Positions 1,677 to 27,646 of a stretch of DNA of 32,114 nt are shown in pieces. The first letter of the stretch is position 1. Every line of letters starts with the position of its first letter. The translations under genes and the position numbers were made by a program. Source of the DNA: Candidatus Nanohaloarchaea archaeon (GTDB lineage Archaea > Nanohalarchaeota > Nanosalinia > Nanosalinales > Nanosalinaceae); the NCBI GenBank assembly GCA_042217585.1, contig JBDGSJ010000029.1, positions 1 through 32,114 of the forward strand, in the 5' to 3' direction. The notes beneath the pieces were generated by a model. The model had not been told where the DNA came from and made no database searches. It worked only from the letters and a program-made list of their open reading frames with translations.

Positions 1677-3062
1677 TCAAGGCCTCCAGACCGGGGTCTG
1701 CTCAAGGTTTTCGATATCGTTCCTGTAGAGCTCACGTATATCCTTCAGCTCCGCCGCCTTCATCGCTATGCGGGGTATCCCGAGACCCCATGCGAGGACC
1801 GATGCCTCGAAGCCGAGAAGCGGCTTGACCACTTCGGGGCGGAACATGCCTGCGCCCCCGAGCTCCATCCACTCTCCGTCGTGGTCGTCCCATACCTCCA
1901 CCTGGACCGACATCTCGGTGTACGGATAGTAGGACGGTATGAGCCTGAACTCGTCGTACCCCATCTTCTCGAAGAACCTGCTGATGTAGCCCTTCAGGTG
2001 GGCGAAGTTCAGGTCCTCGCCCACGACTATACCGTCGGTCTGGAGGAACTCCGCCATATGGGTCCTGTCGACGGTCTCGTTCCTGAAGTTCCTTGCGACC
2101 GTGAAGAACTTCTTCGGCAGTTCCTCCTCTTCGATGTCTATCTCGTGCAGTTTCCGTGCGGATACCGCTGTAGTATGCGTTCTGAGTACGTTTTTCGCGG
2201 CTTCCTCCCGGGACCAGTCGTAGCCCCAGCCCGAGCTACCTGTGGTCCAGCCGTCCTCGTGCGTCTCCCTGACGTTGTCCACTTTCTCACCGAAGACGTC
2301 CAGGTCCGCGGACTCCGGCTCCTCCATGAAGAACGTGTCGTGGAGCTCACGGGCGGGATGGTCCTGCGGCGTGTACAGCCCGTCGAAGTTAAGCAGGCTG
2401 GAGACCACGAAGTCTCCCGACATCTCCTCGAACCCCATCTCGATCCATTTCTCTCTCGCGAACGATATTATCTCCTTGTAGAAATGCTTCTTGCCGGTCC
2501 TCGGGGTCTCCGCACGCGCCTCGACGTTGAACTCCATCTCCACGTCTTCGAGGTCCAGGTCCTTTCCGCGGTCCGTCAGTATGATCTCGCGGGTTTTTTC
2601 ACGGCCTGTCTCCACCAGGCCTCTCTCCTCGTCCTCCTCGCGGAGATCTCCGGACTCAAGTCTGTCCTGCAGAACGTCCTCCTCGAGCGCTTCCTCGCCT
2701 TCCCCGGTCAGCCGGACCTCTCCGCCGTCTACATCGACCCATCCCTTCTCGCGGGCCTTTCCCAGGGCTACGTCCAGGTCCATGTCGCTGAGGTCGGACA
2801 GGCGGTCGTCTCCCTCATCCACTCTCTGGATGAACCTGTGCTCCGGCGAACCTTCTTCCACTACTTCCTCTCCGGTATCCGAGAGCTCACGGACGATCCT
2901 GTCCTCCTCCTCGACCCTGGCGAGGTCCTTCTCCTCGAGCTCCAGGGCGGCGCCGTGGACCATACTCTGGTCGAAGCCCTCTGAGACCAGTTCTTCTTCA
3001 GTACTTCTTTCTTTTTCTCTGAGCTGTTTCAGTATCCGGAAGGCCTGCTCTGACAGTTCCAC
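1677..3062 (-). CDS. pheS: Phenylalanyl-tRNA synthetase alpha subunit
   Basis: 461 aa; PQDHPARELHDTFF, LRTHTTAVSAR, motif 2 FRNETVDRTHMAEFLQ, YYPYTE, GAGMFRPEV, motif 3 AWGLGIPRIAM. Confidence 0.97.
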   Translation of the reverse strand: MELSEQAFRILKQLREKERSTEEELVSEGFDQSMVHGAALELEEKDLARVEEEDRIVRELSDTGEEVVEEGSPEHRFIQRVDEGDDRLSDLSDMDLDVALGKAREKGWVDVDGGEVRLTGEGEEALEEDVLQDRLESGDLREEDEERGLVETGREKTREIILTDRGKDLDLEDVEMEFNVEARAETPRTGKKHFYKEIISFAREKWIEMGFEEMSGDFVVSSLLNFDGLYTPQDHPARELHDTFFMEEPESADLDVFGEKVDNVRETHEDGWTTGSSGWGYDWSREEAAKNVLRTHTTAVSARKLHEIDIEEEELPKKFFTVARNFRNETVDRTHMAEFLQTDGIVVGEDLNFAHLKGYISRFFEKMGYDEFRLIPSYYPYTEMSVQVEVWDDHDGEWMELGGAGMFRPEVVKPLLGFEASVLAWGLGIPRIAMKAAELKDIRELYRNDIENLEQTPVWRP

Positions 3063-8019: not shown

Positions 8020-9120
8020 TCAGAGAGACTGATCGTGTTCCTCCAGGAACTGCTCCACCTCTGGACCTGCCTGCTCCCTCCTCTCCCTGTGCTCCACGAG
8101 GAACTCCTCGAGCCTTTCCTTCGCTATCTGCTTCAGCTCCCCTGAAAGCATTTCACCTGAGCTGTACTCCTCCCTGATCCTCTCAAGCTCGTCGTCGTTC
8201 TCTATCAAGTGGAATGCCAGGAGCTCGAACACCATGTCCTCGGAGATATCGGCACCTTTCTCCCTGTGTTCCTCGAGAGAGTCCTGGCCCCCGGTCTTGG
8301 CCTGATCTATCTTTTCCTTGGCGTCCTCGATGTCGTCCGTCAGAGCTATGTAGCTCTTGGGATCCGAGGAACTCATCTTCCCTCCCTGCAGCCCTCTCAT
8401 GAACTTGTTGTACGTGGAGGCCGGCTTCACGAAGTCTATCTCCTGGTACTTGGAGGCGACCTCCCTTGTCAGCCTGATGTGGGGATCCTGGTCCACCCCT
8501 ACCGGTACCACGGTCGGCTTCGGACCTCCCCTCTCCGGGAACTGCGGGCGGAGTATATCGGCGTACTGGGTTAGCGAGGAGGCTATCTTGCCGGGGTCCG
8601 CGCTCCCGTACGTCGCCTCGACCTCGTTCTGCGTGAGGTGACGGGCGAACTGCTTGGACCTGAGGTGGTAGTCGTTCCCCCCATTGGACTGGAAGTAAAA
8701 GTCGGTTTTTTCAAGGTCCATGCCGAGAGCCACGTAGTTCTTGAGGTACTGCTCCACGACCAGCTCACGGGATTCCTCCAGAGAGATGTCACGAGTGGCG
8801 TATGCCTCTATATCGGCCGCGGCTACGGTCACCTCGGCTCCCATCTCCTGGTACATCAGTATCTGGTCCACGACGCTCTTGTGGCCGAAGTGGAAGATAC
8901 CTGAGGGCATTATACCGGTCATCATAGCGATGTCCTCGCCCTCATCCCTCGCGTCAAGGAAGTCCTCCATGCCTCTGTGGCCGAATATTATACCCCTGCG
9001 GACCAGGAGGCTGTCCGGCATCCGGTCCTCGATCTCACCTATCGGATCTATACCGAACTTCTGCATCTTTTTCCTGTAGTTCCCGACCTCGACGTCTCCC
9101 CAAGGATCTATCTCTGGCAT
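8020..9120 (-). CDS. trpS: Tryptophanyl-tRNA synthetase
   Basis: IDPWG, TGIMPSGIFHFGH (HIGH), PVGVDQDPHIRLTR, KMSSS, AKTGG. Confidence 0.97.
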   Translation of the reverse strand: MPEIDPWGDVEVGNYRKKMQKFGIDPIGEIEDRMPDSLLVRRGIIFGHRGMEDFLDARDEGEDIAMMTGIMPSGIFHFGHKSVVDQILMYQEMGAEVTVAAADIEAYATRDISLEESRELVVEQYLKNYVALGMDLEKTDFYFQSNGGNDYHLRSKQFARHLTQNEVEATYGSADPGKIASSLTQYADILRPQFPERGGPKPTVVPVGVDQDPHIRLTREVASKYQEIDFVKPASTYNKFMRGLQGGKMSSSDPKSYIALTDDIEDAKEKIDQAKTGGQDSLEEHREKGADISEDMVFELLAFHLIENDDELERIREEYSSGEMLSGELKQIAKERLEEFLVEHRERREQAGPEVEQFLEEHDQSL

Positions 9121-9221
9121 GTTACCTACACCCTGATTCAGTTAGAACTACTTTAAGGCTTTCCCGGCTCCTGAAACCTGGACAGAAATCTAGAGGAAAC
9201 AGAGCACCGGTTCCCAGATAT

Positions 9222-9278
9222 TCAGGCTTTTGAAAGGATCCAAAAACGTCCACCCTTCGTTGAAACCGCGGAAACCAT
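9222..9278 (-). CDS. trpS leader uORF MVSAVSTKGGRFWILSKA (18 aa)
   Basis: ATG 9278, TGA 9224-9222; Trp codon 9242-9240; +1 frame open to TAA 9124-9122, 1 nt before the trpS ATG. Confidence 0.8.
   Translation of the reverse strand: MVSAVSTKGGRFWILSKA
9240..9257 (-). promoter_or_regulatory. Putative +1 frameshift cassette, Trp sensor (AAG GGT GGA CGT TTT TGG)
   Basis: Conserved 18-mer in frame with the leader ATG; SD-like GGGTGG, spacer codon, TTT-T slip site, TGG. Confidence 0.8.
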
Positions 9279-9310
9279 CTTATCAGCTGTTTAATTATTA
9301 GGGAGAAAAT

Positions 9311-9327
9311 TTTAAATAGCTTAAAGC
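9311..9327 (-). promoter_or_regulatory. TATA/operator element shared with the trpB leader
   Basis: TTTAAATAGCTTAAAGC identical at 17409-17425; 33 nt upstream of the leader ATG. Confidence 0.65.
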
Positions 9328-9398
9328 GGTTCCGGAAGCAGGAAAACAGTCCAGATAACTGAAGCCTCAAGATAATAACTCTGGACGGGCTGGAAGCT

Positions 9399-10160
9399 TC
9401 AGGAATGCTTTTTCTTCTTTGACATGTAACCCATCCTCTCCTCGTATTCCTCTGTCGACATCAGCACAGGGTAGAAACTTTCCGGAGCCCTGAGTTCCTC
9501 TCCATCCTTCCTGGCGAAGACCTCGCCCTCGGCCACCTCGGCGAAGTTCTCGGCGACGAACTCGTATCCCTCTCCCTCAACCTCGTCATAGACCACGAAA
9601 AGATCGTGTCCTGATTCCTCGACATCTCCCTCTATCAGGTCCTCCGCCGCGAGGAACCTTCTCAGTATCTCGACGGCGTTCTCCTTCGCATCTTCAGAAC
9701 CCTTGAGACCGCATTCGACCGAGATGCCCTGGACGTGATCTATCATCCCTCCGGACTCGTAACTCATGTCGACAACTTTCTCCACTCCTGTCGCCTCCAC
9801 CAGCGGTATGGTCGAATCGTCGTACCGGGTGACTATAGCGAAGGGTTCCGGGTGCGAGAGGGTGGAGTGTAGGTCCAGGACCTTCATGCCCTCTATCTCG
9901 TCCATCATCCTGGCGGCAAGTTCCTGCTCGTGGAAAACACTTTCATCCGTCCCGGGAAAGGCGCGGTTCAGGTCTTCGTCCACGAACCTCTCACCTTTCT
10001 CGAGAGCCTCCTCGTTCGCGATTATGAACTTGACGGGTCCCAGGAACTCCTCGTTCTCCATGACCTCTTCCACGGCGTGCTTGCCGCAGAGCTCGTTCCC
10101 GTGGAGGCACGCAACCACGGCGTGGTCGGGCTCTCCCTCGCCAGCGATTTCTACTTTCAC
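9399..10160 (-). CDS. Succinylglutamate desuccinylase/aspartoacylase family (M14-like) hydrolase
   Basis: HGNE, DLNRAFPG, LDLHST, SVECG motifs. Confidence 0.88.
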   Translation of the reverse strand: MKVEIAGEGEPDHAVVACLHGNELCGKHAVEEVMENEEFLGPVKFIIANEEALEKGERFVDEDLNRAFPGTDESVFHEQELAARMMDEIEGMKVLDLHSTLSHPEPFAIVTRYDDSTIPLVEATGVEKVVDMSYESGGMIDHVQGISVECGLKGSEDAKENAVEILRRFLAAEDLIEGDVEESGHDLFVVYDEVEGEGYEFVAENFAEVAEGEVFARKDGEELRAPESFYPVLMSTEEYEERMGYMSKKKKHS

Positions 10161-15330: not shown

Positions 15331-16087
15331 CTCCATCACCTTCCACGGCGGATGAGACCTTTTCAGCGAGTTCACGCATCCCCTCAGGGCCGTCCTCCCT
15401 GTACCGGTCGATGAGGGCGCTACCCATTATGACGCCGTCAGCCCCCGAATCGATCGCCGTTCTCGCCTGTTCAGGTCCTGATATCCCGAAACCTATGCAC
15501 CGGGGGACATCCATACCTTCTGTCTTCTCCACGAGTCCTCTTGACTTGGATGAGAACTCGTCTCTCGCCCCTGTAGTCCCTTTCACGGAGACAAGGTAGG
15601 CAAACCCTTCGGTCATCTCCCCTATCGTCTCTATCCTTTCCTCCGGCGTGTTCTGGGACACCAGGAAGATGTGGTCCAGCGGGCTGTCCACGTCGGAGAA
15701 CTCCTCCCTGAACTCGCCGGGAGGCATGTCGGGTATTATCAGTCCTTCCACCCCTGCGCTATCGGCGTCGTCAACGAACTCCTGGTACCCGTAGCTGTAG
15801 ACCGTGTTGGCATACGCCAGCAATACTATCGGCGTGTCCCCGAACTCGGAGCTTATCTCGAAAACTTCATCTACAGTAGTTCCGGCCTGGAGGGCGGCGT
15901 GGTCAGCCTCCTTTATCGTCGGTCCGTCAGCCATCGGATCGCTGAACGGAACGCCGAGTTCGACCACGTCCGCACCTGAATCGATGAGCGCTCTCACCAT
16001 CTCCTTTGACCTTTCGACATCGGGGTAACCGGCGACGGTGAACGGGACGAATGACGGGTCCTCGAGCGCTTCCTCAATCGAACTCAA
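15320..16087 (-). CDS. trpA: Tryptophan synthase alpha chain
   Basis: [47 protein letters not shown] start at 16087 behind GGAGGTG. Confidence 0.95.
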
Positions 16088-17237
16088 GGCCTTCCACCTC
16101 CGCAACCGTGTCCATGTCCTTGTCTCCCCTTCCGGAGAGATTGACGACTATGGTCTCGTGTTCATCCGCGATCTGTTTCGTGAGCGCGACAGCGTGGGAG
16201 GACTCCAGTGCCGGAATGATGCCCTCCTCCTCGCAGAGGTCCCGGAAAGCGTCCATCGCCTCCTGGTCCGTGACAGGGCTGTACTCGGCCCTTCCCAGGA
16301 CCTTCATCTCGGAGTGCTCGGGACCGACACCGGGATAGTCCAGTCCCGCGGACACCGACTCGGTCTCCTCAATGTTCCCCTCGTCGTCCTGGAGCAGGTA
16401 GGACCTGAATCCCTGGAAGATGCCTGGCTCTCCTTCGGAGAGCGTCGCGGCGTTTCCACCTTCCTCCGGTCCGCCGGCCTCTGCTCCGTAGAAATCAACC
16501 TCCGTATCCCTGAACTCGTGGAAGAGGCCGAGCGCGTTGCTTCCTCCTCCGACGCAGGCGACCAGGGCGTCAGGTAGCTCTCCCTCCTTCTCCATCACCT
16601 GTCTCCGGGTCTCCTCCCCTATCACGCTCTGGAAGTACCGGACCATCTCCGGGAACGGTTCGGGACCGACAACGGAGCCTATCAGGTAGTGGGTGTCGTC
16701 CGAGTTCGCCACGTAGTCCTGGATGGCTGCGGTGACGGCGTCCTTCAGCGTCTCGGACCCTTCCTCGACCGGGTTCACCTCGGCCCCGCATTTCTCGATC
16801 CTTAGCGCGTTCATCTTCTGCCTCTCGACGTCCTTGCGACCCATGTATATCTCGACGTCCATGTCGAGGTAGGCTCCGGCCATCGCCGTCGCTATACCGT
16901 GCTGACCGGCCCCTGTCTCTGCGATCAGGCGGTCCTTGCCCATCCTTTTCGCGAGCAGGGCCTGGCCCAGCGTGTTGTTTATCTTGTGGGCTCCGCCGTG
17001 TAGGAGGTCCTCACGTTTCAGGTATATCTCCGCACCGTATTTCTCGGAGAGGTTCTCCGCGTGGTAGAGGTTCGTCGGTCTTCCCGCGTACTCCTCCAGG
17101 TGGCGCCGGAAATCCTCTCTGAACTCCTCGCTGTCCTTCGCCTCCTCGAACTCCTCCTGGAGTTCCTGGAGGACCGGGACGAGAAGCTCCGGCACGAACC
17201 TCCCACCGAACCGGGATTCCGCCTTCCCGGAGGTCAT
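16074..17237 (-). CDS. trpB: Tryptophan synthase beta chain
   Basis: [15 protein letters not shown] (PLP lysine), [37 protein letters not shown]. Confidence 0.98.
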
Positions 17238-25813: not shown

Positions 25814-25867
25814 ATGACAACCAAGGGTGGATGTTTTGGATCTGCCGCAAGGCAGGACTCCGAATGA
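25814..25867 (+). CDS. glyS leader uORF MTTKGGCFGSAARQDSE (17 aa)
   Basis: TATTTAA 25775-25781 upstream; ATG 25814; Gly codon 25838-25840 after TTT; +1 frame ends in TGA 25920-25922 overlapping the glyS ATG. Confidence 0.75.
   Translation: MTTKGGCFGSAARQDSE
25823..25840 (+). promoter_or_regulatory. Putative +1 frameshift cassette, Gly sensor (AAG GGT GGA TGT TTT GGA)
   Basis: Same cassette as in the trp leaders, with the sensor codon changed from TGG to GGA. Confidence 0.72.
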
Positions 25868-25918
25868 CGCATTTTACGTTCTCAAAACCTTTGATACAGC
25901 CGAGGAAGTGACCTCGAT

Positions 25919-27646
25919 ATGAGCGAGTCAGAGGAACTGGACGAGATAGCAAGGAGAAGAGGTTTCTACTCCCAGACCGCGGAATCCTACGGCGGTGTCG
26001 CCGGCTTCTACACCTTCGGTCCTGAAGGCGCCGAACTGAAGAGGAACATAGAGAACTCGTGGCGCGACTGGTTCAGGATACGTGAGGGCCACAGGGAGAT
26101 AGAGGCGCCGACGATCATGCCGGAACCGATCTTCGAGTCCTCCGGCCACCTCGACGGCTTCGACGACATGATAATCGAATGCCCCGAGTGCGGTACGAGC
26201 TCGAGGGCGGACCACCTCGTCGAGGACAACACCGATATCGAGGAGGCGGAGAGCTTTTCCACGGACCAGATAGAGGCGCTCATCGAGGATCACGACCTCT
26301 GCTGCCCGACCTGCGGACACGACCTGACAGGTATCGAGGTGGACGACTTCAACCTGATGTTCAGCACGAACATCGGTCCAGGCGACTCCTCGCCCGGCTA
26401 CCTCAGGCCCGAGACCGCACAAGGCATCTTCGCCGAGTTCCCGAGGTTCAAGGAGTACGCCCGCGAACAGCTGCCCTTCGCGATCACACAGCTCGGAAAG
26501 GCGTACAGGAACGAGATAAGCCCGCGGAACGCGCTGGTCCGGGTCCGCGAGTTCACCCAGGCGGAGCTGGAGCACTTCATAGATCCTGAGAGGGATGAAC
26601 CGGAGCTCGAAAAGGTCGAGGACATCGAGCTGAAGCTCTATCCCGCCGAGAAACAGGGAGAGGGCGAATACGTCAGGGCGACGGTCCGCGAGGCGGTCGA
26701 GAACGGTATAATCGAGTCAGAGTGGATCGCCTACTACCTCGGACTGGCGAAGCAGTGGTACATGAGCATAGGCGTCGACATGGACCGATTCAGGTTCAGG
26801 CAGCACCTGGAGGGCGAGAGAGCCCATTACGCCACGGACTGCTGGGACGCCGAGAGCGAGGTCGACGGCGACTGGATAGAGATAGCCGGTTTCGCCTACA
26901 GGGGCTGCTACGACCTGAAGAAGCACCACGAGAACTCCGAGGACGACTTCAGGATATTCAGACAGTACGACGAGCCGAAGACCGTCGAGGATAAGACCGT
27001 CAACCCTGACATGGGATACCTCGGCCCCGAGTACGGAGAGAAAGCCGGCGACATAGCAGAAAGCCTTGAAAAACTCGCAGAGGACGAACCCGAGGCGTTC
27101 GACTCCGATCACGTGACCGTGACGGTCGGCGACGAGGAGTTCGAGATACCGTCCGGAAAGGCGAACTTCAGCGTCGAGGAGAAGGAGAAGAACGGCGAGA
27201 AGTTCCTTCCGCACGTCGTCGAGCCCTCCTTCGGTATCGGCAGGACTGTCTACACGGTCCTCGCCCACCGGATGGAGGAAGAGGAGATAGAAGACGGTGA
27301 GAGGACCGTGATGAGGTTCTCACCGGAGATAGCGCCGACGGAGGTCGCCGTCCTTCCCCTGATGGACAAGGAGGGCATGGGAGAGAAGGCAGAGGAACTG
27401 GTCCGGCGGCTCAGGGCCGAGAGCTTCTCCGTCAGCGCTGATACCTCGGGAAGCATCGGTAGACGTTACCGGAGGCAGGACGAGGTCGGTACACCTGTCT
27501 GCGTCACCGTCGACTACGAGACGCTTGAGGAGGGCACCGTCACTCTGAGGGACCGGGACTCCACGGAGCAGGCCCGGGTGGATGTCGAGGACCTCGAGAG
27601 AAGCATCATAAGGTTCCTCTCCGGAACGGAGCTTGAGGACCTGTGA
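25919..27646 (+). CDS. glyS: Glycyl-tRNA synthetase (archaeal/eukaryotic alpha2 type)
   Basis: LRPETAQGIF, YRNEISPR, RVREFTQAELE, AHYA, VVEPSFGIGR, SIGRRYRRQDEVG. Confidence 0.97.
   Translation: MSESEELDEIARRRGFYSQTAESYGGVAGFYTFGPEGAELKRNIENSWRDWFRIREGHREIEAPTIMPEPIFESSGHLDGFDDMIIECPECGTSSRADHLVEDNTDIEEAESFSTDQIEALIEDHDLCCPTCGHDLTGIEVDDFNLMFSTNIGPGDSSPGYLRPETAQGIFAEFPRFKEYAREQLPFAITQLGKAYRNEISPRNALVRVREFTQAELEHFIDPERDEPELEKVEDIELKLYPAEKQGEGEYVRATVREAVENGIIESEWIAYYLGLAKQWYMSIGVDMDRFRFRQHLEGERAHYATDCWDAESEVDGDWIEIAGFAYRGCYDLKKHHENSEDDFRIFRQYDEPKTVEDKTVNPDMGYLGPEYGEKAGDIAESLEKLAEDEPEAFDSDHVTVTVGDEEFEIPSGKANFSVEEKEKNGEKFLPHVVEPSFGIGRTVYTVLAHRMEEEEIEDGERTVMRFSPEIAPTEVAVLPLMDKEGMGEKAEELVRRLRAESFSVSADTSGSIGRRYRRQDEVGTPVCVTVDYETLEEGTVTLRDRDSTEQARVDVEDLERSIIRFLSGTELEDL

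Follow-up and report, generated by a model that had tools for sequence, protein, structure and literature searches.

We describe here a short leader upstream of trpS, the gene for tryptophan--tRNA ligase (TrpRS), on the minus strand of contig JBDGSJ010000029.1 of a Candidatus Nanohaloarchaea archaeon (positions 1-32,114; this whole stretch of 32,114 nucleotides (nt) is referred to as the window), together with a family of similar leaders in Nanohaloarchaeota. In these leaders, a shortage of charged tRNA at one sensor codon probably leads to a +1 frameshift, by which ribosomes would be delivered to the start of the downstream gene. The evidence, all of it from sequence comparison, comprises the anatomy of the trpS leader, the recurrence of its core motif, the match between one variable codon and the downstream gene, the position behind a promoter-like element and the geometry of the +1 frame. 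The features of the trpS leader are as follows.

9322-9311, minus strand: TATA-like box AAGCTATTTAAA, 33-44 nt upstream of the leader ATG
9278-9222, minus strand: leader open reading frame (ORF) in frame 0 (MVSAVSTKGGRFWILSKA and a stop; 18 codons), from ATG 9278-9276 to stop TGA 9224-9222, seen in sequence and translation
9256-9240, minus strand: conserved 17-nt motif AGGGTGGACGTTTTTGG, containing a Shine-Dalgarno (SD)-like word, the slip codon and the sensor codon
9255-9250, minus strand: SD-like GGGTGG inside the motif, 4 nt from the slip codon
9245-9243, minus strand: slip codon TTT, leader codon 12
9242-9240, minus strand: sensor codon TGG (Trp), leader codon 13 and its sole Trp codon
9241-9122, minus strand: +1 segment (GSFQKPEYLGTGALFPLDFCPGFRSRESLKVVLTESGCR and a stop; 39 sense codons and TAA 9124-9122), translated after skipping T 9242
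9157-9151, minus strand: possible weak TATA element CTTAAAG, upstream of trpS
9133-9129, minus strand: SD-like GGGTG within the end of the +1 ORF, spaced 8 nt from the trpS ATG, recognized by eye and of putative function
9120-8020, minus strand: trpS, tryptophan--tRNA ligase, 366 amino acids (TIGR00233, 239 bits, cut-off 177; NF008926, 376, cut-off 320)

The preliminary description of this DNA had claimed a zero-frame leader, a slip at TTT-T and a 39-codon +1 run to a TAA beside the trpS ATG, and the sequence and the translations agree with it. Leader codons 8-12 read AAG GGU GGA CGU UUU, and codon 13 is UGG. The +1 frame is open over 82 codons in total (9370..9122), and its TAA at 9124-9122 is followed by C 9121 and the trpS ATG at 9120-9118 (TAA-C-ATG); the stop-to-start proximity expected of termination-reinitiation coupling is present for this ORF. 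No Trp codon occurs in the +1 segment (GSFQKPEYLG...TESGCR). All five features of the family, namely a TATA-like box, a short ORF with an ATG, AARGGTGGAYGYKTT, a cognate sensor and a +1 frame reaching the gene start, are found at 9322-9120.

From these features we infer the following course of events. A transcript starting from the TATA-like box at 9322-9311 would begin about 10 nt before the leader ORF. With plentiful Trp-tRNA, UGG would be read and the ribosome would end at UGA 9224-9222, about 100 nt before the trpS start and thus presumably too far away to re-initiate. With scarce Trp-tRNA, the A site would stay empty and tRNA-Phe on UUU would move forward by one base, a step that base-pairing between GGGUGG and the 16S rRNA 3' end would probably assist; the slipped ribosome would read the 39 +1 codons, end at UAA 9124-9122 and re-initiate at AUG 9120, so that TrpRS synthesis would rise when its product is short. 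As for the distances, two reports on Haloferax volcanii (PMC10666635, PMC6728339) describe re-initiation as requiring overlaps or very short gaps, a gap of about 20 nt nearly abolishing it.

The motif was searched for in 70 Nanohaloarchaeota genomes (note that "phylum" and "order" mean the same 70 genomes here). AGGGTGGACGNNTTTGG, with at most one mismatch, occurred at 63 places in 35 of the 70 genomes (reversed pattern, 9 places); RGGTGGAYGNNTTT, for sensors starting with T, at 145 places in 54 genomes (reversed, 29); and RGGTGGAYGYKTTV, for the other sensors, at 198 places in 56 genomes (reversed, 18). Since the motif recurs far above the reversed-pattern counts, the leader in the window is beyond chance. 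Motif copies located beside trp-related genes were on the same strand as those genes. When the motif was followed by slip codons other than NTT, the matches were about equal to the reversed control. Across 185,579 species genomes, ATGAARGGTGGAYGYTTTT gave 47 matches. About 26 of them came from records whose titles name Nanohaloarchaea, something similar or an uncultured archaeon, and the other 21 or so were lone matches in unrelated bacteria, consistent with a rough estimate of about 35 chance matches for so short a pattern; in these genomes and with this pattern, there was no sign of the motif outside the phylum. For the subsequent analysis, 122 of the 145 places lay in fetched DNA (the 23 omitted were, by eye, chance matches, mostly with two variable bases other than Y-K), and for the 198 places, 40 regions in 11 genomes were fetched in addition to the places in this genome. 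After matches without an ATG-started frame-0 ORF (ORF0) of at most 60 codons had been set aside, 162 leaders were analysed.

In every leader, the motif is in frame with the upstream ATG and has the form (A)AR GGT GGA YGY KTT followed by one variable codon. It encodes K-G-G-[R/C]-[F/V]-X, the minimal leader being M-K-G-G-R-F-X, and ORF0 extends 2-25 codons past the sensor. Position 9 is C or T (Arg or Cys) and position 12 is T or G (Phe or Val), while GGT GGA is invariant at synonymous sites; the constraint is therefore on the nucleotides and not on the peptide. Positions 2-14 of the motif were fixed by the search patterns; the two A's preceding them were not, and they are conserved in 130 and 144 of the 162 leaders. 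Nothing was conserved 3' of the sensor among the leaders. An in-frame ATG, reached upstream before any stop, was present in frame 0 for 161 of the 176 pattern matches with at least 160 nt of upstream DNA, as against 19 in the +1 frame and 16 in the +2 frame. For 137 of 161 leader ATGs, as against 5 of 173 control anchors, a TATA-like word began 28-43 nt upstream, and on these grounds the leader ORF is the predicted first ORF of its transcript. In gene-proximal Trp leaders, an SD-like ACGTGAT was found 7-12 nt before the ATG. The 16S rRNA 3' end was taken from five relatives (the 16S of this genome was not assembled); it reads GGAUCACCUCC, and its UCACCU is complementary to RGGUGG of the motif, with 4 Watson-Crick pairs and 2 wobble or A-U pairs when aligned by hand.

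The variable codon specifies Trp, Tyr, Ser, Cys, Phe, Thr, Val, Gly, Pro, Ile, Leu or His. A downstream gene or a fusion was present for 120 of the 162 leaders, and the other 42 had no ATG-started ORF of at least 150 amino acids within 400 nt. In 69 of these 120, the downstream gene was an aminoacyl-tRNA synthetase (blastp against nine references; serS, tyrS, cysS, pheS, thrS, valS, glyS, proS and trpS were verified by NCBIfam), and the sensor codon was cognate to it in all 69 (Ser 24, Tyr 14, Thr 8, Gly 6, Val 5, Cys 4, Phe 3, Pro 3, Trp 2). These counts are not independent because relatives share leaders by descent; counted once each, the nine matching amino acids are far beyond chance. Trp sensors also precede trpB (in the window) and trpE (L052; uncoupled, with a gap of 181 nt) and are fused to a TrpD-like gene, and an Ile sensor precedes ilvA. 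A chance origin of the family was rejected on the motif counts versus the reversed patterns and on this codon-gene match.

For the geometry of the frames, the gene start was defined frame-independently as the first ATG-started ORF of at least 150 amino acids after the sensor, and the 75 leaders with a gene start within 200 nt of the motif were used. The first stop lay within 12 nt of the gene ATG in 67 of the 75 for the +1 frame, in none for frame 0 and in 8 for the +2 frame. The commonest +1 junctions were an ATGA overlap (20 leaders) and termination 5 nt into the gene (16; serS, ATGCTTGA); in the Ser and Tyr classes, frame 0 terminated 43-129 nt short of the start. Another 28 leaders have a +1 frame that continues as a gene of 92-467 codons, among them GNAT-like, IMPase-like, GCS2-like, aminotransferase, TrpD-like and GATase-like genes and genes of unknown function encoding about 120 amino acids; an ATG of their own upstream of the motif was absent in 23 of the 28 and present in 5.

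Frame 0 is thus the sensing frame, since the variable codon matches the gene only there, and +1 is the effector frame, since only this frame reaches the gene. The two would be connected most simply if slow reading of the sensor codon led to a +1 shift at KUU. The signal would be the supply of aminoacyl-tRNA rather than the free amino acid, because the nascent peptide is constant and the A-site codon varies. The Trp-triggered slip under feedback by charged tRNA-Trp that had been put forward for trpS fits these comparative data (69/69 cognate sensors, 67/75 +1 stops, 28 fusions and a TATA-first ORF), the slip itself being deduced from the frames.

TrpRS orthologues were present in all 41 genomes searched, and the trpS upstream regions were read for 28 from genomes and 8 from metagenome contigs (at most 83% identity). 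Most trpS spacers were 10-80 nt long and without a leader, including six with the same AstE-like gene upstream. L018, which is from another family and has 65% TrpRS identity, carries a leader preceded by AAGCTATTTAA and reading ATG CGA CAG GGT GGA CGC GTT TGG CTG CGG CAG TGA (MRQGGRVWLRQ and a stop). Its +1 frame is open up to TGA-T-ATG of trpS, with the same geometry as in the window. Ten metagenome trpS loci (at most 83% identity) yielded no closer case.

This genome contains five motif copies; besides the one in the trpS leader, the 466-nt spacer preceding trpB holds three and contig C8 holds one. The trp operon is on the same strand upstream of trpS (trpB 17237..16074, trpA, a PRT-like gene, trpD, trpF, trpE, trpG and trpC), and an AstE/AspA-like gene (10160..9399, minus strand) lies directly upstream of the trpS leader, with a 278-nt spacer to trpS. 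No tRNA genes were found in the window. The other leaders are as follows.

17668-17234, minus strand: three Trp leaders of the same family in series before trpB (TIGR00263, 573 bits)
17658-17642, minus strand: motif of trpB leader A (MAQKGGRFWTRELSSL and a stop; ATG 17668), whose +1 frame enters motif B in frame 0 of B
17600-17584, minus strand: motif of trpB leader B, whose +1 frame holds GISSVSRSSW and ends at TGA 17441-17439 past a T5 tract
17332-17316, minus strand: motif of trpB leader C (ATG 17372), whose +1 frame stops at TGA 17236-17234, overlapping the trpB ATG 17237 (ATGA)
25814-25922, plus strand: Gly leader (MTTKGGCFGSAARQDSE and a stop, MTTKGGCFG..; ORF 25814-25867), with slip codon TTT 25835-25837 and sensor GGA 25838-25840

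Since the +1 frame of leader A feeds frame 0 of leader B, two successive slips would be needed there. Leader C has its own TATA box; GCTTTAAGCTATTTAAA precedes this trpB-proximal leader at about 17425-17409, as at trpS. The +1 frame of the Gly leader ends at TGA 25920-25922, overlapping the ATG (25919) of glyS (ATGA; glyS, 25919-27643, plus strand, TIGR00389, 648 bits). A Pro sensor precedes proC-proB in this genome. Relatives carry leaders before pheS, tyrS and cysS, and the set of regulated synthetases varies between genomes. A Leu-sensor leader of this genome (L175, 5147-5884, minus strand) has a class-I glutamine-amidotransferase-like target.

Several observations weigh against frameshift-dependent delivery of ribosomes to the gene start. 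The trpS-proximal leader was found in two cases only, the window and L018, the 25 other genome spacers and the 8 metagenome spacers being without it, and conservation of the trpS +1 ORF rests on two cases because only L018 shares this leader. In this genome, pheS (window 1680-3062, minus strand), tyrS and cysS (C19:37880, C6:33034) have no such leader. Eight of the 75 leaders are not coupled. The slip codon is GUU in 40 of the 162 leaders and many sensors start with A, C or G, which leaves the P-site tRNA without perfect re-pairing in these cases; the UUU-to-UUU re-pairing claimed in the preliminary description thus holds at trpS and does not hold as a general requirement. With 4 nt between the SD-like word and the slip codon and a target in the anti-SD that is more internal than in prfB, the effect of this word is uncertain. 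Independent expression of trpS may also occur, given the SD-like GGGUG of this gene and a possible weak TATA element. In upstream "first-copy" Trp leaders (MAQKGGRFW type), the +1 frame leads to no gene; the +1 peptide of these leaders ends in the conserved ..[IL]SS[IV]K.[FL]SW, with a second Trp codon, so that the absence of Trp codons from the +1 segment is true of the trpS leader, for which it was claimed, and fails as a rule of the family. Finally, the invariant GUG of the motif lies in the +1 frame and is a possible start codon.

The last point leads to an alternative in which the leader stalls ribosomes for sensing without any frameshift, the +1 ORF or fused gene starts at this GUG, and ORF0 is an overlapping regulatory upstream ORF. 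In its favour, the GUG at motif positions 4-6 never varies and belongs to the +1 frame, and 23 of the 28 fused genes have no other conventional start if frameshifting is left aside; the remaining five fused genes have an own-frame ATG upstream of the motif. We nevertheless regard this alternative as unlikely. A ribosome with the sensor in its A site, 9-11 nt past the GUG, would presumably cover it, and shortage would then lower, not raise, expression; no SD-like word stands at a typical spacing ahead of the GUG; in minimal leaders (ATGAARGGTGGA), just a few nt of transcript would precede this codon; and the presence of UUU or GUU directly before the sensor in every class would be left unexplained.

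Less likely still is a primarily transcriptional effect, in which extended translation would shield the nascent RNA from termination at oligo-T or by a factor, re-initiation being secondary. It is suggested by the first-copy Trp leaders, in which the +1 stop is followed by T-rich, terminator-like tracts and then by the promoter of the second leader and in which the second Trp is conserved (..ISS[IV]K.[FL]SW), and by leader B of the window, whose +1 frame passes through CCGTTTTTATCC. First-copy leaders were seen at L004, L050, L053, L055, L056, L059 and other loci, in this genome at L175 1961 (plus strand) and in the window at 17600-17439 (minus strand). Between the sensor of the trpS leader and the trpS ATG, however, no T run exceeds 3, and no stable or conserved structure was predicted: folding of the trpS leader (9290..9100) was no better than shuffles (z = -0.05), and the 60 nt downstream of the 162 sensors gave a mean z of -0.24 versus shuffles. 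The tight clustering of the +1 stops on the ATG and the 28 fusions argue for a translational link; the T tracts and the conserved +1 peptide of the first-copy leaders may hint at an added transcriptional layer.

A DNA operator or a structured RNA of riboswitch or T-box-like kind, with incidental small ORFs, is a very improbable explanation of the motif: its strong nucleotide-level conservation just downstream of promoters and the sequence AGGGUGG, which we take to resemble part of the bacterial T-box sequence, would suit such an element, but all copies lie on the coding strand and keep a single codon phase relative to an upstream ATG (161/176), the three bases after the motif vary with the amino acid of the downstream gene, folding is no better than for shuffles, and no Rfam family reached the gathering score anywhere in the window (with E up to 10 allowed, positions 9000-9500 gave only a 12-bit chance match to an enterobacterial sRNA, E = 4.2). 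A -1 frameshift on the T5 run was rejected, the +2 frame being short (16 codons here) and reaching the start in 8 of the 75 leaders, and transcriptional slippage is unlikely, the T runs being only 2-6 long and the slip codon GTT in 40 of the 162 leaders.

Other observations concern genes of less clear role. Trp sensors were found with a GNAT-like gene (about 240 amino acids) beside trpS, a GCS2-like ligase, an IMPase-like gene and a class I/II aminotransferase, and Phe sensors with AstE/AspA-like deacylases and one GCS2-like gene (L055, L004, L043, L050 and others, as Trp fusions; L047, L059, L109; L046, L051; L065, L075); in the window, the AstE/AspA-like gene at 9399-10160 adjoins the trpS leader on its upstream side. 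These genes may serve aromatic amino-acid salvage. Some leader ORFs have two motifs and two sensors (e.g. MSKATKGGRFIGRLEKGGRVLQER and a stop), with Ile+Leu at L181, L182 and L189 and Val+Leu at L178 and L177 (the latter being the C19 end of this genome); they precede genes of 150-390 amino acids without a Pfam or NCBIfam family. Cys-type leaders with a TGC sensor (L035, L066, L071) have Cys-rich frame-0 tails (MKGGRVCRGGDDDESCGCGDGCGCC and a stop) and are followed by NUDIX genes or continue as fusions into uncharacterised ORFs of 106-119 codons. Leu leaders (L175, L203, L206, L183, L193) have as their target, by fusion or coupling, a class-I glutamine-amidotransferase-like protein of 226-246 amino acids, and others precede a protein of about 576 amino acids without a family; leuS was not among the targets seen.

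Little has been established about the way in which archaea match their synthetase and amino-acid supply genes to the charging of tRNAs. The leaders would offer a concrete mechanism for this matching with a simple specificity code of one codon, and sense-codon sensing would join the short list of regulatory frameshifts (RF2, antizyme). If the proposed slip is true, this would be the first natural regulatory use of hungry-codon frameshifting, and the sensor codon would label uncharacterised genes with the amino acid that they serve (GNAT-, GCS2- and IMPase-like genes, Trp; AstE/AspA-like genes, Phe), giving an amino-acid context to such genes of host-dependent nano-archaea. The cassette would also explain many "frameshifted" or GTG-started gene calls in Nanohaloarchaeota genomes and could provide a portable amino-acid-responsive switch for haloarchaeal genetics. 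No description of such leaders was found in the literature searched, including a 2016 recoding review (subscription journals were not covered).

Among known systems, the autoregulatory +1 programmed frameshift of prfB (bacterial release factor 2), as described in PMC5009743, shares with the leaders a short ORF0, a shift-prone P-site codon that ends in UU and is followed by U, a slow A-site codon that needs the regulated product for its decoding, and the logic of feedback; the SD-like word upstream is a candidate counterpart of the prfB stimulator. The re-pairing of UUU_U at trpS is like that of CUU_U to UUU in prfB and, within the family, is confined to UUU with T-starting sensors. The internal SD of prfB is about 3 nt upstream of the shift codon; the leaders have the SD-like RGGUGG at a distance of 4 nt. 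In prfB, the sensor is a stop codon (UGA) read by a release factor, whereas here it is a sense codon (UGG) read by an aminoacyl-tRNA. Unlike the bacterial prfB, the present system is archaeal and modular for at least 12 amino acids, and its +1 frame usually ends at the regulated start (coupling), trans-frame fusion being found in 28 of the 162 leaders and not at trpS. Hungry-codon +1 shifting, as in yeast Ty1 (CUU_AGG_C), where slow decoding in the A site makes the P-site tRNA prone to shift by +1, and antizyme, where frameshifting is both sensor and effector, are also similar as described in PMC5009743; those cases involve a rare tRNA, laboratory starvation or polyamines, whereas the leaders would form an amino-acid-specific switch set on synthetase genes. 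Cys-responsive leaderless short ORFs of mycobacteria (bioRxiv 10.1101/834739) are alike in that sensor codons attenuate downstream operon genes, and the Cys-type leaders here also have Cys-rich tails; that system is bacterial, and no frameshift is proposed in the portion of the preprint consulted.

Like E. coli trpL, the trpS leader is a promoter-proximal mini-ORF with a codon for the regulated amino acid (one Trp codon here). Unlike trpL, it has one sensor codon rather than a run, and its proposed output is a frame change followed by re-initiation; trpL-type terminator or antiterminator hairpins were not found in the trpS leader fold or with Rfam, and no T run longer than 3 follows the sensor. 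To our knowledge, archaea lack T-boxes, and classical attenuators are not established in archaea. No T-box (RF00230) was found at the gathering score in the window, nor at E up to 10 in 9000-9500. The leaders are nevertheless like the T-box regulon of Gram-positive bacteria in having synthetase and supply genes as targets and one codon-sized specifier per tRNA, and unlike it in that the codon is read by the ribosome and not by pairing of the tRNA anticodon with the leader RNA. We lean towards viewing the family as the Nanohaloarchaeota counterpart of the T-box regulon, a modular +1 switch that would be read by the ribosome and act via re-initiation or trans-frame fusion.

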